NCBI GenBank assembly: GCA_963620785.1
Contig: CAVFAT010000051.1
Coordinates: 13,416 to 77,415 of the forward strand
Direction of reading: 5' to 3'
Length of the DNA stretch: 64,000 bases
Source of the DNA: Bacteroidaceae bacterium
Lineage (GTDB): Bacteria; Bacillota; Clostridia; Lachnospirales; Lachnospiraceae
Of the stretch, positions 17,726-27,529 are shown piece by piece; positions within the stretch are counted from its first letter, which is position 1, and the number at the start of each line of letters is the position of its first letter. Below the pieces are notes generated by a model. That model saw only the letters and a list, made by a program, of their open reading frames with translations, was not told the origin of the DNA and searched no databases. The translations under genes were made by a program, and so were the position numbers.

Positions 17726-17767
17726 ATAAAAACAAGTCCGCGAACGGCAGCAGCCGCCCGCGGACTT
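17726..17767 (-). terminator. Intrinsic terminator of the ene-reductase operon
   Basis: Minus-strand read: AAGTCCGCGGGCGGCTGCTGCCGTTCGCGGACTT followed by GTTTTTAT. It lies 40 nt after the reductase stop. Confidence 0.8.
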
Positions 17768-17806
17768 TCTTTCTCATCTTTTCTTTTTTTCTTCATTCAA
17801 CAATCT

Positions 17807-19822
17807 TCAGATCATATTTGCTCTTGCAAAAGCCTGTCTTGTACATCTTTGAATATTTCCGGCACCGGGGAGACAATCTCCTATCGCATAAAACTGCAGG
17901 GCACAATTCTGATAAGCCAAAGCCTCCTCTGTTAATCGATCTGTACCGCCACAGATTACAATCGCATCCCCTGTCAGACTTTGCGCCTGCCCGTCTGCAT
18001 CCAGATAGAAAACGGTATTTTCTTTTATTACAGTTGTTTTTGCATTCACAATTGCAGTAAATTCTTCATATCGCTCCCATTCTGCGGCTTCATGTGCATG
18101 GGTCTCGTCATCCTGCTTTACAAAAGACATGGTAATGTAATGAAGCCTGGATGCATCATGTGCCACTTCTTTCTGACGGGTCAGCACACTCACCTTATGT
18201 CCTGCCCGAAGCAGATAAATTGCTGTCTCGATACCGGTCTCGGAACCTCCGACAATAATAACATGCTTGCCAAGTTCAGCCTCCTTGCCCCAGATTTCCC
18301 AGCTTGTCGGATAGAGTGCCTTTCCCTCTGAATCATATAGCCCATCTATACTCTTTGGCAAAACAGCTCTGGCTCCTGTTGCCGCAAGCACTGCATCATA
18401 GCCCTCCTGCTCAATTTCCTCCGGAAGAGGATTCTTTTCAAGCATAATATTTACATTCAATCTCTTCAGCTCTCTGATCAGCCATTCCTTATAATTTTTA
18501 ATTGGCCATTTAAAATCAAAATAATCTGCATGAAGGAGTTGTCCTCCCAGCTGATTGCTCTTTTCGTAAAGTGTTACGCAATGCCCTCTTTTGGCCGCCT
18601 CAAGAGCTGCTCTCATTCCGGCTGCACCGCCTCCGATTACTGCCACCTTTTTCGAAGTGGTCTCGCGGATCATACGGGGAAGTTCATGGCGAATCCCGTG
18701 CACCGGATTTACAGAGCACATGGTAATCCACGGTTCCGGCTCGGGAAGAATGGTTCCATGACATTTATTGCATTTGAGGCAAGGTGTAATCTCTCCGCTT
18801 TTTCCTTCTAAAAGCTTTTGACCATACTCATAATCTGCCATGAAGGCTCTGGCCATACCAAAGAGGTCACACTTTCCTTCTGCCAGGATTTCTTCCATTT
18901 CTTCCGGCTCCTGAAAACCTCCGATCGGAGCCAAAAGAGCAGTAATCCCCTCTTCCTTCAGTCGGGCTGCAAATGCTACGGCCGGATGGTCTCCCTGCTT
19001 AAAGTTAAAGCCCGTCGGATGAGATCTGGTTCCATCCTTCTCTCTGATCTGGAAAATATCAACATCCTTATCGATCAGATGACAAAATTCTGCCACATCA
19101 TCGGAATTTACGCCCGGTTCCTGCTTCCAGCCATAGCCCCAGGGCTGCTCCCAGGCAATAATTGCCTCTGTGATGAAATTATCTCCAAAGCGCTCCTTTA
19201 CCGCTGCATAAACCTGACGGATAAATCTTGATCTGTTCTCAATGGTATCGCTGTTATATTCATCCTCTCTGGTCTTCTGCTCCGGCAGAATTTCCATGTC
19301 GGTGCGCATACTAAGACCATCAAATCCCATAATTTTATACATATGCAGCTTTTCCACAAATGCATCAATCACCTCCGGCATCATTTCCTTCGGCAGCTGC
19401 TTGGTTTCCGGATGATCGTGAGGTGCCCCCATATCAAATACCTTGCCTCCGTAAAGGGAATAGCCTTCCGGCATATCCAAAGAAGCATGGATGAGAAGCT
19501 TCGATCCATAAAAATGAATCTCCTCCGCCAGAAGCGAAAAATAATTGTGAGTACTGGGATCACTTAGATCAAATGCCTGCATATGGGTAAAATCAAACTG
19601 ATAAGGTCCCTTATGCTGTTCCATATTGTTCCACTCTGCGATTGTTACAATTCCGGCACCATTTCTTGCAAGATTAACATGAAAATCCCGAAATCCCTCT
19701 GCCGGAAAAGTCTCCGGACCCATCAGGGTATGAGGAGAGGCGTTCGGATATTCCATTCGATTCTTCAGTAAGTGATTGCCCACCATAATTGGTGAAAGCA
19801 AGTGCGGATATGCTTTTTTCAT
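17807..19822 (-). CDS. Two-domain flavoenzyme of the 2,4-dienoyl-CoA reductase / 2-enoate reductase family (OYE-like TIM barrel + Cys cluster + FAD/NAD(P) domain); substrate unknown
   Basis: 671 aa from the ATG at 19822 (AAGGAG 9 nt upstream). N-terminus LLSPIMVGNHLLKNR is OYE-like. Cys motif CLKCNKCHG...C. Dinucleotide fold VAVIGGGAAGM. Confidence 0.85.
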   Translation of the reverse strand: MKKAYPHLLSPIMVGNHLLKNRMEYPNASPHTLMGPETFPAEGFRDFHVNLARNGAGIVTIAEWNNMEQHKGPYQFDFTHMQAFDLSDPSTHNYFSLLAEEIHFYGSKLLIHASLDMPEGYSLYGGKVFDMGAPHDHPETKQLPKEMMPEVIDAFVEKLHMYKIMGFDGLSMRTDMEILPEQKTREDEYNSDTIENRSRFIRQVYAAVKERFGDNFITEAIIAWEQPWGYGWKQEPGVNSDDVAEFCHLIDKDVDIFQIREKDGTRSHPTGFNFKQGDHPAVAFAARLKEEGITALLAPIGGFQEPEEMEEILAEGKCDLFGMARAFMADYEYGQKLLEGKSGEITPCLKCNKCHGTILPEPEPWITMCSVNPVHGIRHELPRMIRETTSKKVAVIGGGAAGMRAALEAAKRGHCVTLYEKSNQLGGQLLHADYFDFKWPIKNYKEWLIRELKRLNVNIMLEKNPLPEEIEQEGYDAVLAATGARAVLPKSIDGLYDSEGKALYPTSWEIWGKEAELGKHVIIVGGSETGIETAIYLLRAGHKVSVLTRQKEVAHDASRLHYITMSFVKQDDETHAHEAAEWERYEEFTAIVNAKTTVIKENTVFYLDADGQAQSLTGDAIVICGGTDRLTEEALAYQNCALQFYAIGDCLPGAGNIQRCTRQAFARANMI

Positions 19823-19839
19823 AATCTGATATCTCCTTT

Positions 19840-21261
19840 TCATTCTACGGGATGCTTATCATGACGCTCCCTTAAGTCGGCACGAATGCCTTCAATCTCT
19901 TCCTTCTTAATCGGATAGAAAAGAACTGCAATAAAGGAAATTGCAGCCAGAATACCCGGCAAAAGAAATCTGAGCACTGCAACGCCGCTGGCCATTGCCG
20001 GTGTAACATCAATCGTAACCGGCCCCATCCCCTGAAAACCGACAAATTGAAGACCGAAACCTGCAATGGTAGATGCAAAACCTGCAGCCAGCTTCATCAG
20101 AAAGGAAACGATGGCAAATACCGTCGCATCCTGACGAATACCGTTCTGCCATTCCAGTTTATCACATACCTCGAAGCAAAGGTTAATGACATTGATCTGC
20201 AAAGCTCCGACAAACATATTTGTGATCACCAAAACCACCAGATACAGAGGAATCGATACATTTCCAGCAAGATAACTCAATAGAAGCAAAACACAGTAAA
20301 TCGGAACTCCGATCAGCATAATCGTCTTGCAGCTTCCGACCCTTGTTGCAATATAGGGATAAAAGAATTGGCCAATGCAGGCACCTACTGCGACAAGCGC
20401 TACGCCAAGTCCCATAATCAAAGCCGGTGAACCAAGGGAATATGTCAGATAGTAGCTGTTAATCATATCAGATAAGATCTGATTAAAAGTGAAAAAGAGC
20501 TGCGCTGCCATAACAGCAAGCAAGGCCCAGTTTCCTCTTAATACATTCAGAAAGTCCTGGAGACCGGAATTTTTCTTTGCCGCCGGTTCTGCTGTTGCAA
20601 GAGCCTTTTCATGACATCCGAAAAAAGAAAAGCCGGATGAAATAATTGCTACGACACCTACTAAAATTGCAGTATAAAAAACACCATTTTGTCCGATTGT
20701 AAGACCGTTTCCATCAAATCTGGCAACAAAAGCCGCCAAAACCAAAGGCCATACAAAAGCCGGAATTCTGGAAACAATTCTGCTCCATGCTGTAATGGAA
20801 GCTCTCTCCTGCGGATCATTTGTCATTGCGCCGGTCAAGCCAAAATAAGGAATTTCCAGAACGGTATAGCACATACCAAAAAGCACATAAATGATCACAT
20901 AATAGACCATCTTTGCCTGATCGGATAGGGTCGGCACAAAGAAAAGTGCCGCAAAAATTGCTGCCATTGGAATTGACGATAGGATATAGGGTCTGAATTT
21001 GCCAAGCTTAGAATGGGTATGATCGGCAAGGGAACCCAGGATTGGATCATTGATTGCATCCCATATTCTAGCTCCCAGCATCATAGAACCGATAAAGGCT
21101 CCGGGCAATCCTGCTACCATCATCAAAAACATCATCAGATAATTATTTGCAATTGTCTGAAAACCATCCTTACCGGCAAAACCGATAGAATAACAAAGCT
21201 TTGCTCCCGGACTGACCCTGTCCTTGGGATTGATTGTATAAGCATCTTTCTTTTTATTCAT
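19840..21261 (-). CDS. Glycoside-pentoside-hexuronide (GPH):cation symporter family MFS transporter
   Basis: 473 aa from the ATG at 21261 (GGGGGA RBS). GPH signature DHTHSKLGKFRPY. About 12 TM segments. Confidence 0.85.
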   Translation of the reverse strand: MNKKKDAYTINPKDRVSPGAKLCYSIGFAGKDGFQTIANNYLMMFLMMVAGLPGAFIGSMMLGARIWDAINDPILGSLADHTHSKLGKFRPYILSSIPMAAIFAALFFVPTLSDQAKMVYYVIIYVLFGMCYTVLEIPYFGLTGAMTNDPQERASITAWSRIVSRIPAFVWPLVLAAFVARFDGNGLTIGQNGVFYTAILVGVVAIISSGFSFFGCHEKALATAEPAAKKNSGLQDFLNVLRGNWALLAVMAAQLFFTFNQILSDMINSYYLTYSLGSPALIMGLGVALVAVGACIGQFFYPYIATRVGSCKTIMLIGVPIYCVLLLLSYLAGNVSIPLYLVVLVITNMFVGALQINVINLCFEVCDKLEWQNGIRQDATVFAIVSFLMKLAAGFASTIAGFGLQFVGFQGMGPVTIDVTPAMASGVAVLRFLLPGILAAISFIAVLFYPIKKEEIEGIRADLRERHDKHPVE

Positions 21262-21335
21262 TTTATTTCCCCCTTGCATTCACCAACCTGTCTCTTCCCC
21301 CAAAGTTACAGGTCAGCAGACTACTTACCTTATTT

Positions 21336-22499
21336 TTATGAAATAGATATATATTCGGATTTTACCTGTGCTCTCTTGCCGTTATAAGTCATAAACATAT
21401 CCTCAACAAGATCACTTACCAGAATCCTTGCCTTAATTACATCCTTATCATTCGGATGGTTCCATGGCTGTCCGTGGAAAAAATAAGAAGCTGTAATCTT
21501 CTCTCCCTCTGCTGTCTCATAAATATAGGGATCCGGCATTTCTCCCGGTCTGATCAGCATCGGCTTTTCTCCTTCTTTCAAACCTGCCGGTCCAAATTCT
21601 TTTCCAACACAGGCAAACTGGCCGATTACATCTACATTTGCCAGCTCCAGGAAAAGCTTCAATGCTGCAAGCGTTGCCAAAGCCTCATTGGATCCGAAGA
21701 AGCCACCTCCGTAGGTGGTAAAAACAATCCCTATCGGTCTGTAATTGTCTGCTGACGGGCCTCCCGGGAAAGGACAGCTTCTCCGCCTCCACATGGCACC
21801 GATTCTCTTTTTGGGCGGCATGGCATCGGGTCCTCCCGGACCTCCTGCCTCTCCTGGAGGTGGCTTAATCGTATCGCTATTCGCCTGAAATCCATCGCCG
21901 GCATCAACCTGTTCCTGCACTTTGGATTCAAGCTCGCCGCCCGCTCCGAGAGAAAATACCTTATTGACAACAGTAAGCGGATATCCTGCTACAATCGGAG
22001 AGCCGAGTGCGATGACATCATAATCATCAAAATATAATTTTTCCTGCATGCCTTCCCAATCAGAGGCTTTCATGGTCATTCGGAAAAAAGTGACCTCCCA
22101 TTTGTAATGTAGAAAAGTTTCCTCCATGGCTCTGGCAATCTTCTCTGTATTTTTTGTCATGGTTGCATAGAGAATCAAAGCTCTCAGCTTCTTTGGCGAA
22201 AAAGAAAGATTCTTCAGCTCGTAGGACTCATTCTTCTTTCCTTCTTCCAAAATACAGCCCTCTCCCTTTACACTTCCTTCTTCATCAAAAGAAAAACTGA
22301 TCTGATGCAGTTTGTTATCCAATCCTGCTTCCACCGTGATTTCTTTCTCACGAACCACGATATTCCCCAACAGATCTGCTCCTCTGCTGCTGATAATCTC
22401 TCCTTCATATCCACGGTCTGTCTCTCTAAGCGCAATCACCATTTTTCTTTCCTTGCCTTCAAAACTGACCTGATAGGAATATTTACCGGCAAAATTCAT
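21336..22499 (-). CDS. Flavodoxin-like protein with an extra N-terminal domain and a Pro/Gly-rich insertion
   Basis: 387 aa from the ATG at 22499 (AAAGGAGG RBS). Flavodoxin-type segment ALILYATMTKNTEKIA. Insertion IKPPPGEAGGPGGPDAMPPKK. I do not recognise the first ~110 aa. Confidence 0.6.
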   Translation of the reverse strand: MNFAGKYSYQVSFEGKERKMVIALRETDRGYEGEIISSRGADLLGNIVVREKEITVEAGLDNKLHQISFSFDEEGSVKGEGCILEEGKKNESYELKNLSFSPKKLRALILYATMTKNTEKIARAMEETFLHYKWEVTFFRMTMKASDWEGMQEKLYFDDYDVIALGSPIVAGYPLTVVNKVFSLGAGGELESKVQEQVDAGDGFQANSDTIKPPPGEAGGPGGPDAMPPKKRIGAMWRRRSCPFPGGPSADNYRPIGIVFTTYGGGFFGSNEALATLAALKLFLELANVDVIGQFACVGKEFGPAGLKEGEKPMLIRPGEMPDPYIYETAEGEKITASYFFHGQPWNHPNDKDVIKARILVSDLVEDMFMTYNGKRAQVKSEYISIS

Positions 22500-22626
22500 T
22501 CTTTTCCTCCTTTCGCCTTGTCCTGCTTCTTTTTCTTTATCTTCAGTATAAAAGTCCAAAAAGCATCTGTATATTATCGTAAATGTTATTTTTTATTCAC
22601 ATTTTCTCCTATTGCATTTCTTTTTA

Positions 22627-22635
22627 TGCTATAAT
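22627..22635 (+). promoter_or_regulatory. Extended -10 element (TGCTATAAT), candidate promoter of the AraC gene
   Basis: A perfect TATAAT preceded by TGn. A TTGCAT sits upstream at sub-optimal spacing. Located about 140 nt upstream of the AraC start. Confidence 0.4.
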
Positions 22636-22773
22636 TTTTGGCATATTCTTTACTTTTTAACAAGTGATCCATGTTTGCAGACTTTTCCGCCTGCGGCAGG
22701 TCATTTCAGTCATTTCAGTAATACTATTTTTTCTGTACACAGGCCTTTAAACTTTGCAAAGGATTCGAAAATT

Positions 22774-24063
22774 ATGAACGAAAAAGCTCGTCTCCGTTTC
22801 GGAGAATTTGATGAAATGCGACCTTCGGCAAAAGAGCTCCGACAAAATATTTTAGAAAATAAAATGATGTCCCTTCTCTGCCATTGCTCTGCCGAAATTG
22901 ATCCCAGTACTGAATTATTCTATTCTGTTAATCATATGTTTCTTGGCAGTGGAAGCTATATGCTTCTGCTCTTTTCTGAAATCAGCCCCATTTCACAGGA
23001 GCAATCTCTCGGCCAGGATGTCTATAGCCGTTTTTATCTCTATACCTTAATTCAGGAAGAGCTTTTAAAACTTTTTGAAGGCCACTTTACGATCCATACC
23101 GCTGAACTTGACGGCAGACTGGTCGCCCTTCTTATCTTTCATTATGGGGCTGTTCCTGCCATTCAGGCAGATCTCATGCAGTTAATTGAAAAACGATGCA
23201 TCGATCTTTCAGAAAGCTTAAAAGAAAACTATGATCTGCATGTCATTTCTTATTTGGGACAGATCATGGATGAAATCCCACTGATTTCTTCTGTATATGA
23301 TAAATTACTGAGTGCTTCCACTTTTCATCGTTATGTAAACCATAAGTTTGATCGTCCGATTTTCTATTTACCGAAGCCAAAGTCTCCATTAGAAAAAGAA
23401 ACTACGCTTTCTGCTCATGATCATGCCAAGGCAATTGCAAATGCTATGCTTTCCCATGAAGATTATCGCCAGTATGCAATTTTAGCTTTGGATGCTCTGA
23501 TCAATGAACCTCTTTTATCGATTGAAGAGCTGAAAAAACACAGCGGTGATCTTTTTGAAGCTCTCTGTCAGGCTCTTTCCGAAAGGGGTTTTCGTTTTCA
23601 GCACAAAAAAGCCTCTGAGGACTTCCAAAGAGAAAACACCCAAACAACCAGTTGGGATTCCAGCAGAGCCTGGTTTTTAAACTTTCTGGATGAGGTCTAT
23701 GCAGAAAATGAAGTTGATGAGAATACCCAACGAGCTCTTCTCCTAGAAAAAGCAGAGGGCTATATCGAAGAAAGGATTCATGATCCGAGTCTAACCATCA
23801 CTGATATTTCTGATACTCTTTCTGTCAGTATTGCTACTCTGAATGCACTTTTTCGCCGGCAGCTAAACCTTACTCCGGCAAAATATATTCGGCAAAAGCG
23901 CTTAAATGAAGCCTTGCTTCTACTTCAAAAAAGTGACCTTTCCGTTAAAAAGGTCGCAGAAAGCTGCGGCTTCGGCTCCCTGGAAACCTTCCATCGTCTC
24001 TTTCGTCAGGAATACGGCATTTCTCCGGGAATTCTGAAAAATAAAAACAGCAGCAGGGATTGA
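22774..24063 (+). CDS. AraC/XylS-family transcriptional regulator with a long unassigned N-terminal sensor region
   Basis: 429 aa from the ATG at 22774 (AAGGA RBS). The C-terminal double HTH (…LNLTPAKYIRQKRLNEALLLL…GFGSLETFHRLFRQEYGISPG) is AraC-type. Divergent from the reductase operon. Confidence 0.85.
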   Translation: MNEKARLRFGEFDEMRPSAKELRQNILENKMMSLLCHCSAEIDPSTELFYSVNHMFLGSGSYMLLLFSEISPISQEQSLGQDVYSRFYLYTLIQEELLKLFEGHFTIHTAELDGRLVALLIFHYGAVPAIQADLMQLIEKRCIDLSESLKENYDLHVISYLGQIMDEIPLISSVYDKLLSASTFHRYVNHKFDRPIFYLPKPKSPLEKETTLSAHDHAKAIANAMLSHEDYRQYAILALDALINEPLLSIEELKKHSGDLFEALCQALSERGFRFQHKKASEDFQRENTQTTSWDSSRAWFLNFLDEVYAENEVDENTQRALLLEKAEGYIEERIHDPSLTITDISDTLSVSIATLNALFRRQLNLTPAKYIRQKRLNEALLLLQKSDLSVKKVAESCGFGSLETFHRLFRQEYGISPGILKNKNSSRD

Positions 24064-24131: not shown

Positions 24132-25301
24132 TTACTGATGCTTAATTACCTTTCCATAATGCATTACAAAATCTACCTGACGGAATACAGAAAGATCTTC
24201 CTTCAGTTCTCCTTTAATTGCAATAAGATTGGCCAGCTTTCCAGTCTCAATGCTGCCCTGCGAATCCTCCAGACCACAGACATGTGCACTGTTAATGGTC
24301 GCTGCCTCAATCAGCTGCTTCATGGAAAGTCCTGCCTCCTGCATCAGCTCAAGCTCATGCACCGGAATTCCCTGCACGCTGTCATTTTCTGTCATTCGCA
24401 TGGTATCTGTTCCAAGTGCAACCTTTCCACCCTTCTGAACAAAACGTCTGACATTATCCACTGCATTTCTTTCCTGCTGGTGGGTATCGATTGCTGCCAT
24501 CTTTTCCAGCATTTCCTTCATTGCCGGAGGAAGTTCTCCGGGCGGAAGTGGCGGTCTTGGTGCATCGATGACTGCAAGTGTGGGAGTTACATACATGTTT
24601 TTCTTTACCATTTCTTCCAGCATGTCATCCTCAATCGGATCCAGGGACATGTGAGCCAGCTCCGGAACCCCTGCATCAATCAAAGACTGAATATATTCTG
24701 TATGCTGGATATGTACACCAAACCACATATTATTTTCCCTTGCAGCATCTGCCAGTGCCTTAAATTCCTCCGTGGACAGAACCGGCGTATTCGGATCCAT
24801 TCTTTCCATATCCGCTGCCGATTTAATGCCTGAGCAGCCAAGCTTCTTCATTCTTTCAACGGCTGCTCTTGCCTCCTCGGCTCCCTTTACCGCAATTCCG
24901 TTTTCCTTTCCCATCATCATATGGCCATAGCCATTCTCACAGGTAATGAACCTTCCTGCACTGACAACCTGCGCCCTGTCCGGCTGTGTCAGAGAATGAA
25001 TCCAGGAAAGAAATTCCTCCAAACTCTGATTACCGCCAAATCCCATATCTCTGACGGTGAGGACTCCGCCCATGGCCCATTCCTTTAAGGAGGTATCATC
25101 CATCGGCTCCATACCACTCACCAAATGCATATGGGCATCAAAAAAGCCCGGCATCAAGGTATATCCCTCCAGATCAATACTCTCATCTCCCATAAGATTC
25201 GATCCAATCTCCTGAATCATGCCGTCTTCTATCTTGATATCCTTCTTTTCCTGCCAGATATTCGTATCACAAACGATGGCATTTCGAATCACAATACTCA
25301 T
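24132..25301 (-). CDS. Amidohydrolase-superfamily metal-dependent hydrolase, substrate unknown
   Basis: 389 aa. N-terminal composite domain, then PGFFDAHMHL (HxH metal motif). GGAAGGGGGA RBS. Confidence 0.8.
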   Translation of the reverse strand: MSIVIRNAIVCDTNIWQEKKDIKIEDGMIQEIGSNLMGDESIDLEGYTLMPGFFDAHMHLVSGMEPMDDTSLKEWAMGGVLTVRDMGFGGNQSLEEFLSWIHSLTQPDRAQVVSAGRFITCENGYGHMMMGKENGIAVKGAEEARAAVERMKKLGCSGIKSAADMERMDPNTPVLSTEEFKALADAARENNMWFGVHIQHTEYIQSLIDAGVPELAHMSLDPIEDDMLEEMVKKNMYVTPTLAVIDAPRPPLPPGELPPAMKEMLEKMAAIDTHQQERNAVDNVRRFVQKGGKVALGTDTMRMTENDSVQGIPVHELELMQEAGLSMKQLIEAATINSAHVCGLEDSQGSIETGKLANLIAIKGELKEDLSVFRQVDFVMHYGKVIKHQ

Positions 25302-25702: not shown

Positions 25703-26629
25703 ATGGAATTATCACATTTAAAATATTTTCAGCTAACAGCCAAACTTCAGCATATTACAAAAGCTGCCTCCCAGCTTTATATCTCACAGCCGGCCCTTAG
25801 CAAAACAATCTCCAAGCTGGAACATGAGCTTGGTGTGAAGCTTTTTGACAGGGAAGGAAAGGGACTTTACCTGAATGAGTACGGGAAAGCTGTATTAAAG
25901 CATACCGAGCGGATTTTCTCTGAACTGGATGAAATGAAGAGAGAAATATCTGATATGAAGGACGGAACCTCCGGATCTCTCCGTATTGCAACCGTCTGGT
26001 CCTCTTCTAATCCCCTATGGCTGACCAGCAGTATCGGCAAATTTATGCCCCTTTATCCAAATATCCATATCCAGTATTTTAAAACCGAATTGGAGCGATT
26101 GGAAAAGCAGCTGACAGACGGAGAAATCGATATTGCCTTCTCTTCTGCTCCCCTGGCTTCTCCAACAATTGAATGGACCCCGCTTTTCTCTGAAAAAATC
26201 GGCATTGTTCTCTCTGACCGCCATCATTTTGCGAAAAGATTCTCTCTTCATATGATTGACCTGAAGGATGAAAAATTCTGTATTATGGATGTCAATTCGG
26301 ATTCCTCCAGACTGACCCTAGAACTTTGTCAAAAAGCACATTTTACACCGAATATCTGCTATTCTCTGGACAATCCCCTTCTGATTGCCTATGCACTGAC
26401 CAATGCCGATTGTGTTTCCATTATTTCCGAAAATGGCTACATACAGTCCCATAGTCAGGATAAGAATCTGGGGATTCCGGATGATAAGGTCTTCATCCCC
26501 CTTGAGGATGACTTTGCAAAAAGAACCTGCTATATGGGAACCCTGACAAAACGCTATCAGACAAAAGCCCAGCTTGATTTTATTGCAACCCTGAGACAAG
26601 CCATCGACTCAGTTAACAATGCGGGCTAA
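25703..26629 (+). CDS. LysR-family transcriptional regulator
   Basis: 308 aa. N-terminal wHTH LKYFQLTAKLQHITKAASQLYISQPALSKTISKLEHELGVKLFDR. Divergent from the amidohydrolase. Confidence 0.92.
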   Translation: MELSHLKYFQLTAKLQHITKAASQLYISQPALSKTISKLEHELGVKLFDREGKGLYLNEYGKAVLKHTERIFSELDEMKREISDMKDGTSGSLRIATVWSSSNPLWLTSSIGKFMPLYPNIHIQYFKTELERLEKQLTDGEIDIAFSSAPLASPTIEWTPLFSEKIGIVLSDRHHFAKRFSLHMIDLKDEKFCIMDVNSDSSRLTLELCQKAHFTPNICYSLDNPLLIAYALTNADCVSIISENGYIQSHSQDKNLGIPDDKVFIPLEDDFAKRTCYMGTLTKRYQTKAQLDFIATLRQAIDSVNNAG

Positions 26630-26800: not shown

Positions 26801-27529
26801 ATGAATGAAAAGGAATTACTGGAACGAATTGAAGCTTTGGAGAAAAAGGTGGAAAGGAATCAAAGAGCAGCCGATGCCGTTGAGATCCAAAACCTGATGA
26901 GTCGTTATATCTTTTATCTGGAAAATGGAAACATTGCCGGTGTATGGGATGATCTCTTTTCCCATGAAGATCCGGATGTCAGCATGGAAATCATGGATGC
27001 CGGCGGATATGTTGGAGCAGAACATGTAAAACGAGCCTACTATACCATGGCTCGAAAGGTTGATATGGATGGAAATCCAGTCGAAAAGACCTCTTCCGGT
27101 ATGTCCAATACCAACTCTGAAAGAGCCGGTCTTCTTCTCATGCTCACTGTCGAAACGCCTATGATCGAAGTATCCCAGGATGGCAAACATGCCTGGGGAC
27201 AGTGGCATTTATTCGGTCCTCATTCAAACCGCGTTTTTGACCATATCAGCGGCAACAAAAAGGATATTGCCTTTTGGATCGCCGGAAAATATGACAATGA
27301 ATTTGTCAGGGATTCCGATGGACAGTGGCGTTTCAAATCTCTTCATGCCATTAACTGGCTGAGAACGCCCTATGATAAGAGTTGGCTGGAATGCGCTGAC
27401 TGCAGGAGTACGCCTTCTCCCTATTATCCGACCGATATTCCAAGACGTATTACATCCTTTAATCCGGATCTCGGAAATGATCCGGATCGCTGGGGACCTC
27501 TGCCGCATGAGCACATCGTGCATGAATAG
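26801..27529 (+). CDS. NTF2-like / SnoaL-like fold protein with an N-terminal coiled-coil segment
   Basis: 242 aa. The EIQNLMSRYIFYLENGN... pattern is typical of SnoaL_4/NTF2-like proteins. AAGGAG RBS. Confidence 0.6.
   Translation: MNEKELLERIEALEKKVERNQRAADAVEIQNLMSRYIFYLENGNIAGVWDDLFSHEDPDVSMEIMDAGGYVGAEHVKRAYYTMARKVDMDGNPVEKTSSGMSNTNSERAGLLLMLTVETPMIEVSQDGKHAWGQWHLFGPHSNRVFDHISGNKKDIAFWIAGKYDNEFVRDSDGQWRFKSLHAINWLRTPYDKSWLECADCRSTPSPYYPTDIPRRITSFNPDLGNDPDRWGPLPHEHIVHE

Follow-up and report, generated by a model that had tools for sequence, protein, structure and literature searches.

The window analysed here is a 64,000-nucleotide stretch of contig CAVFAT010000051.1 (positions 13,416 to 77,415 of the forward strand; assembly GCA_963620785.1), from a genome deposited as Bacteroidaceae bacterium and placed by GTDB in the Lachnospiraceae. 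It contains a compact operon, flv-gph-red, whose genes encode a flavodoxin-like protein (FLV), a GPH-family symporter and an iron-sulphur (Fe-S) flavoenzyme reductase, and which is divergent from a gene for an AraC/XylS regulator (Table 1). The reading that we favour, with somewhat better than even confidence in the mechanism as a whole, is that of a substrate-inducible Fe-S flavoenzyme module. The AraC-type regulator would sense a small molecule through its N-terminal domain and activate the divergent promoter, which combines an invariant TATACT and a weak -35 with a conserved AT-rich block, and a single flv-gph-red transcript would run to the terminator. The symporter would import the compound, and the cytoplasmic reductase would pass electrons from flavin adenine dinucleotide (FAD) over a [4Fe-4S] cluster to flavin mononucleotide (FMN) and on to the substrate. 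FLV, in its FMN-bound form, would serve as an accessory redox partner, most likely as a source of low-potential electrons for the reductase, and with its N-terminal beta domain it may bind the ligand. The product may be processed further by an amidohydrolase encoded nearby and perhaps also by a SnoaL_4 protein.

The four genes, their starts and the intergenic gaps of 74 and 17 nt within flv-gph-red had been proposed in an earlier note made from the sequence alone, and they matched the six-frame open reading frame (ORF) list, the ribosome-binding sites and the starts of homologues. GGAGG precedes the flv start, GGGGG the symporter start, and AGGAG lies 9 nt upstream of the reductase start. Longer versions of the ORFs are possible; the ribosome-binding sites precede the starts given in the earlier note, and in alignments the starts of the FLV and reductase homologues fall on the same residues. 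The strong terminator predicted at the end of the operon was found as a hairpin followed by a T-run, and a terminator scan detected no terminator-like site in either intergenic gap. The compact operon with its divergent AraC regulator was confirmed, as were the family assignments of all four proteins, and we infer that flv-gph-red is one co-transcribed, inducible unit.

The reductase combines a divergent Old Yellow Enzyme (OYE)-type TIM barrel with a four-cysteine [4Fe-4S] motif and FAD/NAD(P)H domains. Pfam searches matched Oxidored_FMN (PF00724) over residues 8-340 with 49.9 bits (cut-off 27), a weak score compared to the 130-244 bits of canonical paralogues from the same genome, and Pyr_redox_2 (PF07992) with 70.3 bits. 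In an alignment of 27 homologues, the cysteines C348, C351, C354 and C369, the FMN-phosphate elements PIGGFQEP and GxARAFMAD, the dinucleotide motif GGGxxG (residues 397-402) and many barrel residues, among them N27, H31, W64, Y94, H103, K108, Y230 and H268, are invariant, and the second dinucleotide motif, GGSExG (525-530), is conserved. H268 aligns with the catalytic His252 of FadH. The best solved relatives are 2-naphthoyl-CoA reductase (NCR; 6qkg, 2e-37) and FadH (1ps9, 3e-31), with weaker matches to trimethylamine dehydrogenase (TMADH; 1.8e-23) and histamine dehydrogenase (2e-20). More than 1,200 database clusters matched the reductase at E<=1e-10, none of them with a name beyond 'FAD-dependent oxidoreductase'; two near-orthologues share 93% and 85% identity with it and all others 70% or less.

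The active site was compared in an alignment of the 17 Fe-S flavoenzyme paralogues of the genome itself. Canonical paralogues carry ELxHxG, HAGHGWLLHQFLSP and [IV]R[ILM]SG, whereas the reductase and its two closest paralogues have LLIHA--SL instead of the first motif, a 7-residue deletion at the H-x-x-H-G-W loop and IIAWEQPWGYG instead of the last. The Q-x-x-H-x-G-R stretch, the equivalent of FadH Tyr166 and the R-x-S are absent from the reductase; the steroid 5-beta-reductase ci2350, in contrast, keeps the Tyr166 equivalent (PMC12238238). The earlier note had suspected an atypical OYE site from the letters IHASLD. The loss of motifs is real and extends through the subfamily, but these particular letters vary among the homologues. 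As judged from the alignments, the reductase is a member of a large subfamily without a name, whose enzymes have other residues or deletions in place of the canonical OYE motifs but retain the four cysteines, the FMN-phosphate motifs and the equivalent of FadH His252. The reduction of a C=C bond, which had also been proposed, is less secure in the case of an enone because the carbonyl-activating residues of the OYE/FadH enzymes are missing; with the carbonyl-binding and proton-donor residues lost, the chemistry is probably not textbook enone reduction.

Several known identities were considered for the reductase and rejected. It scored far below the cut-offs of the models for long BilR (NF045599, 232.6 bits against 750), BaiCD (NF041087, 201.7 against 825) and mycofactocin OYE-2 (198.4 against 793). 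The hallmark of BilV is an AHAH motif near residue 170 (PMC13278186), and the equivalent stretch here reads GLSMRTDMEIL, without this motif. No characterised orthologue was found in the literature searched.

FLV contains no Pfam domain: the flavodoxin models stayed below their cut-offs, with weak matches at the phosphate loop only, and the N-terminal domain had no match even at E=10. An AlphaFold2 model (33-sequence alignment; pLDDT 83, pTM 0.81) predicts a ten-strand beta domain (residues 5-102) followed by a flavodoxin fold (106-387), the two halves of which would be separated by a disordered Gly/Pro-rich insert. Foldseek matched the model to WrbA and flavodoxins at probability 1.0, with a TM-score (TMt) of 0.83 to 5wid, and further to PnpB and the flavone reductase FLR. 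The phosphate loop YATMTKNTE is conserved and fits [ST]-x-[ST]-x-N-T-E, with T113, T115, N117, T118 and E119 invariant or nearly so, and other conserved motifs are GSPIVAGYP, TTYGGGF and FACxGKEFGPAG. The predicted fold and this loop suggest that FLV binds FMN. The family occurs in a long form of 360-410 aa and a short form of 275-295 aa that is devoid of the first ~100 residues, and it is small: when 1.84 billion representatives were searched exhaustively with the profile, 215 matched at E<=0.001, and at the stricter E<=1e-30 the number fell to 39. The family comprises about 200 clusters at 50% identity. FLR (PDB 7D38, PMC7862272) resembles FLV in its flavodoxin-like fold and its origin from gut Clostridia, and with ~290 aa it has the size of the short form. 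However, the TMt to it is 0.35, and FLR was rejected as a sequence relative, as the FLV profile does not retrieve it from the PDB. The comparison with BilS as a possible homologue, using sequences from two Lachnospiraceae genomes (loci L154 and L163), gave an hhalign probability of 18.6%, confined to the phosphate loop, and a local BLASTP match (E=0.01) of VFTTYGGGFFG...FACVGK to VFATAGFG...FMCQGR; the two proteins have the phosphate loop and a local F-x-C-x-G-K/R motif in common.

To describe the neighbourhoods of FLV in other genomes, 77 loci from species-representative genomes were collected, mostly from Oscillospiraceae/Clostridiales metagenome-assembled genomes (MAGs) of human gut, rumen and deer, and a radius of 8 kb was used for Fe-S flavoenzymes. 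Such an enzyme is encoded within this distance at 31 of the 77 loci, compared to ~9 expected from the high paralogue density of the genome under study (binomial 9e-11), and directly adjoins FLV in L019, L020, L021, L023 and L056. The neighbouring reductases belong to at least six paralogue types. An AraC or LysR regulator is present at 32 loci, and AraC regulators of the type found here stand beside FLV at 14. SnoaL_4 genes (14 loci) usually form tandem sets of two or three, and an Opp-type ABC importer is encoded at 13-16 loci. A lipoprotein of ~590 aa without Pfam match occurs at 27 loci, usually 22-109 nt upstream of FLV, and a ~468-aa protein with a weak hot-dog (FAS1_DH_region) match at 15, usually 12-116 nt downstream. 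By analogy with BilS, and given the genomic link at 31 loci and the poor use of NAD(P)H by OsrB (see below), a role of FLV as a dedicated electron donor, as had been suggested, is plausible.

Other features of these loci are worth recording. The lipoprotein (~590-625 aa) is encoded on the same strand as FLV, carries a signal peptide and a lipobox cysteine and resembles a solute-binding protein (L026, L028-L030, L032-L035, L045-L047, L050, L053, L082, L087, L089 and L094). The ~468-aa protein stands directly beside FLV in L022, L026, L030, L032, L051, L052, L055, L061, L076, L081 and L085. A cluster with, in this order, a LysR gene, the short form of FLV, a tandem pair or triplet of SnoaL_4 genes and one or two Fe-S flavoenzymes, a toolkit like that of the bai operon, recurs in Oscillospiraceae and other MAGs (L056, L062, L088, L090, L093, L095 and L048), and no described function for this cluster was found. 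FLV loci up to 85% identical to the one described here lie in records labelled Prevotella, Barnesiella, Flexilinea and Alloprevotella (L017, L037, L048, L080, L036, L093 and L088); these are probably mis-binned contigs, or else the result of recent transfer.

The symporter carries GKFRPY, which fits the GPH signature G-[KR]-[FWY]-[RK]-P-[WFY]. It passes the GPH model TIGR00792 (271.8 bits, cut-off 231.35) and matches PF13347 with 229.8 bits. The MelB model (196 against 456) and the glucuronide-transporter model (153 against 528) were rejected. According to the ORF list and Pfam, no glycosidase or sugar-catabolic gene is adjacent to the operon, and the proposal that the substrate might be glycosylated found nothing in its favour beyond membership of the GPH family.

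The earlier note had made its reading depend on the co-conservation of the three genes. This holds for close relatives, but more distant loci (55-70% identity) retain just the symporter and the reductase as a pair. The full layout of AraC, flv-gph-red and amidohydrolase is found in L007 and L018 (reductase 84-85% identical) and partly in L017, the complete operon being restricted to close relatives (84-93% identity). The pair is kept at 68-70% identity in L004, L005 and L008, and also in L105, where the reductase is 55% and the symporter 67% identical. Symporter orthologues lie directly upstream of subfamily reductases in L007, L008 and L105 (67-90% identity); over all five loci with the pair their identity ranges from 36 to 90%. 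More distant MFS_2 carriers stand beside subfamily reductases in L100, L128 and on contigs C40 and C27 of the genome itself. A different arrangement occurs in L019, in which AraC and FLV (65%) are followed after 114 nt by a subfamily reductase (71%), and no transporter is present. The most abundant reductase clade, represented by P0039 (721 members), stands alone. In a sample of 150 genomes of the same order, the reductase had no orthologue at E<=1e-150, and its distribution is therefore patchy.

The DNA-binding domain of the AraC protein was identified by Pfam as HTH_18 (76 bits, residues 346-420). For the ~320 N-terminal residues that the earlier note could not assign, no Pfam family was found either, even at E=10 (first 329 residues). 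In the AlphaFold2 model (pLDDT 87) the sensor region is predicted to be alpha/beta, and the only clear Foldseek matches in the PDB are those of the DNA-binding domain to AraC-type domains (TMt 0.8-0.9). Weak matches of the sensor to GGDEF-like or PucR-like domains (E>0.01) were not relied upon.

The intergenic DNA of five orthologous loci was aligned to compare the promoter regions. The -10-like TATACT pointed out in the earlier note is invariant, and TATACT(G) is kept even in L019, where FLV is only 65% identical; the promoter scan pairs it with TATACA at a spacing of 17 nt. The AT-rich block TGAATAAAAAATAACAATTATGATAATATACA, which lies ~17 nt upstream of TATACTG and overlaps the -35 position, is nearly invariant, and a second block is conserved on the araC side, whereas the intergenic DNA around these blocks is not conserved. 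This footprint resembles an activator site over a weak -35 beside the promoter of a divergent regulator, and such a function may be presumed from the pattern of conservation. A repeat search for AraC half-sites in the promoter region turned up only a perfect 9-nt tandem, GTCATTTCA GTCATTTCA, at 22700-22717 in the araC leader, and the orthologous loci do not share this repeat.

Some of the genes next to the regulator may act together with the operon. The amidohydrolase gene and the operon are syntenic also in L007, L017 and L018, and the gene probably belongs to the same pathway. The region of the LysR and SnoaL_4 genes shows the same synteny in L017, and these two genes possibly belong to the pathway as well. 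In L113 (12940-14858), a SnoaL_4 gene (63% identity to that of the window) overlaps an amidohydrolase gene (44%) by ~40 nt, and the pair sits among reductases of the same subfamily. The overlap points to translational coupling of the two genes, between which the LysR gene lies in the window, and this arrangement ties the SnoaL_4 and amidohydrolase genes of the window together and links them loosely to the reductase family.

Table 1. Features of the flv-gph-red region (positions in the window)
Feature	Position	Strand	Details
Intrinsic terminator ending the operon	17734-17767	-	15-bp stem with 10 GC pairs, 4-nt loop, then T-run; GTTTTTAT
Fe-S flavoenzyme reductase (red)	17807-19822	-	671 aa; six-frame ORF list
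GPH/MFS_2 cation symporter (gph)	19840-21261	-	473 aa; six-frame ORF list
Flavodoxin-like protein FLV (flv)	21336-22499	-	387 aa; six-frame ORF list
-10 hexamer TATACT of the operon promoter	22545-22550	-	invariant in five loci
AT-rich block over the -35 position, candidate AraC binding site	22568-22604	-	TGAATAAAAAATAACAATTATGATAATATACA; nearly invariant in five loci
Second conserved block	22623-22660	.	plus strand TGcTATAAT, candidate extended -10 of araC
AraC/XylS regulator	22774-24063	+	429 aa; six-frame ORF list
Amidohydrolase	24132-25301	-	389 aa; PF01979, 89.5 bits
LysR regulator	25703-26629	+	Pfam
SnoaL_4/NTF2-like protein	26801-27529	+	Pfam

The genome itself (2.38 Mb in 90 contigs) encodes 17 full-length OYE/4Fe-4S/FAD paralogues on contigs C4, C6, C7, C11, C14, C16, C27, C29, C40, C41, C42, C45, C51, C56 and C61, a density of roughly one in every 140 kb. 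Their active-site motifs grade from canonical to strongly remodelled. The closest paralogue of the reductase (65%) is part of a cluster on C40 (6628-13777) with the order Fer4-fused FAD_binding_2, MFS_2, reductase and a second Fer4-fused FAD_binding_2, an arrangement repeated in the metagenome locus L100. The next (51%; C27, 8473-11714) is followed after 56 nt by an amidohydrolase gene whose product is 32% identical to that of the window, and an MFS_1 carrier is encoded divergently upstream. The third (42%), also on C27, adjoins another MFS_2 carrier. Furthermore, the genome contains a second FLV, of the short form, and a second full-length-type AraC regulator that is divergent from another reductase paralogue.

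The architecture of the operon belongs to a class that is already known, and the operon is a variant within it. In a survey of gut anaerobes (Pascal Andreu et al. 2020, PMC7371122), most Fe-S flavoenzyme clusters carry an MFS transporter and many carry flavodoxin or electron-transferring flavoprotein (ETF) proteins. Like the operon, these clusters combine a BaiCD/FadH-type flavoenzyme with an MFS transporter and often a flavodoxin, and they likewise occur in Clostridia with many paralogues; the survey defined the cluster class but did not assign functions. The module for inducible import and reduction outlined in the earlier note fits these clusters, and according to the literature reductases of this class are usually induced by their substrates. 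Neither in this survey nor in the other literature searched was a characterisation of the reductase subfamily or of the FLV family found. The BilR/BilS system similarly consists of an OYE-type reductase, a separate flavodoxin-like protein and a dedicated regulator, and its expression is induced by its substrate, as that of the operon would be. However, BilS (168-175 aa) is the partner of a short BilR (PMC10769871) that lacks the FAD/NAD(P)H domains, whereas FLV (387 aa) accompanies a full-length enzyme, and the regulator is of the MarR type there and of the AraC type here.

FadH shares with the reductase the three-domain plan, the four-cysteine cluster, the FMN-phosphate motifs and His252 (H268 here). 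It differs in the active-site motifs described above, and there is no CoA-pathway context here. The bai operon includes the reductases BaiCD and BaiH, the MFS transporter BaiG and the SnoaL-like dehydratases BaiE and BaiI, and a toolkit as in bai and OsrA-OsrB, with Fe-S flavoenzymes, a transporter, SnoaL_4 proteins and KstD-like FAD_binding_2 flavoproteins, is present in loci related to ours. Unlike the bai operon, flv-gph-red is not accompanied by genes for a CoA ligase, a CoA transferase or a hydroxysteroid dehydrogenase; it has a neighbouring amidohydrolase gene, and its transporter is of the GPH and not the BaiG type. For purified OsrB, NADH and NADPH were found to be poor donors and the actual donor was called unidentified (Jacoby et al., 10.1101/2024.10.08.617280), which makes the genomically linked, flavodoxin-fold FLV family worth testing.

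Several observations weigh against the module as proposed. The FAD and NAD(P)H motifs of the reductase are complete, so that a partner may be unneeded. Most loci of the reductase subfamily lack FLV; the exceptions are L007 and, with distant FLV genes, L138 and L142, and none was found in the abundant P0039-type loci. The promoter consensus scan was not enriched (12 sites compared to 13.8 expected in shuffled sequence), and no sequence feature indicates any substrate. Steroids, bile acids, flavonoid or other glycosides and N-heterocycles were considered as substrates, and no specific sequence feature supports any of them; the distribution over samples from rumen, deer and the Hadza gut points to a compound of plant or host origin with a hydrolysable C-N or ester bond.

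FLV might instead be an enzyme itself: a dehydrogenase or ene-reductase that depends on FMN, of the type of WrbA or FLR, with a step of its own in a longer route such as the oxidation, dehydration and reduction of bile-acid dehydroxylation. The reductase would then take NAD(P)H directly. This possibility, which we regard as unlikely but worth keeping in view, agrees with the Foldseek matches to WrbA, PnpB and FLR, all catalytic flavodoxin-fold enzymes, although the FLV profile finds neither FLR nor WrbA by sequence and the TM-score to FLR is just 0.35. FLV also has a large conserved C-terminal extension (invariant C297, E301, H342, D363 and E366) and a beta domain, both needless in a simple carrier, and it is co-operonic with dehydratase-like proteins (SnoaL_4 at 14 loci, the 468-aa hot-dog protein at 15) and with binding proteins, as would be expected for a pathway enzyme. 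The reductase, moreover, retains its own NAD(P)H domain. The fact that several reductase subfamilies accompany FLV nevertheless suits a generic redox partner better. Still less probable is that the large enzyme works oxidatively, like trimethylamine or histamine dehydrogenase, with electrons passing from the substrate over FMN and Fe-S to FLV as acceptor. The two dehydrogenases are built on the same three-domain plan, with matches at 1.8e-23 (TMADH) and 2e-20 (histamine dehydrogenase), the large enzyme lacks the classical ene-reductase residues, and the redox partner of TMADH is a separate flavoprotein, ETF. But FadH and NCR outscore TMADH as matches, both dinucleotide motifs of the reductase are intact whereas TMADH retains only a vestigial ADP site, electron sinks are more useful to a strict anaerobe, and the characterised gut members of the family in the literature are all reductases.

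It is likewise improbable that the genes are neighbours without a common pathway, the reductase being a broad detoxifier of quinones, nitro compounds or generic enones and the symporter an ordinary glycoside carrier. The 17 paralogous Fe-S flavoenzymes of the genome and the many subfamily reductases that stand alone would agree with such an arrangement, and GPH carriers usually transport sugars; however, no glycosidase or sugar-catabolic gene is adjacent. The gaps between the genes are just 17 and 74 nt and contain no terminator, the pairing of symporter and reductase is still seen at 55% identity and turns up again with unrelated MFS_2 lineages, and the operon has a divergent regulator of its own together with an operator-like block that is conserved, all of which argue for a common pathway. 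The substrate-inducible module with FLV as redox partner is the reading that we retain. A more far-reaching extension of it, which we consider rather unlikely and put forward tentatively, is that OsrB and other gut Fe-S flavoenzymes have their physiological redox partners in FLV proteins, and that the remodelled-barrel subfamily carries out a non-classical reaction, the two together forming a new two-component reductase system.

The dedicated regulator and the conserved candidate operator offer a simple reporter route to the inducer and hence to the substrate. The travelling of FLV with Fe-S flavoenzymes could explain the poor NAD(P)H activity of purified members like OsrB. As the subfamily drops residues thought to be essential for OYE-type catalysis and yet is strongly conserved, it may use a different mode of substrate activation. 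Gut Clostridia possess tens of unassigned Fe-S flavoenzymes, with 17 in this 2.4-Mb genome, and since bile acids, steroids, bilirubin and flavonoids are substrates of those that have been characterised, enzymes of this family affect the chemistry of the host.

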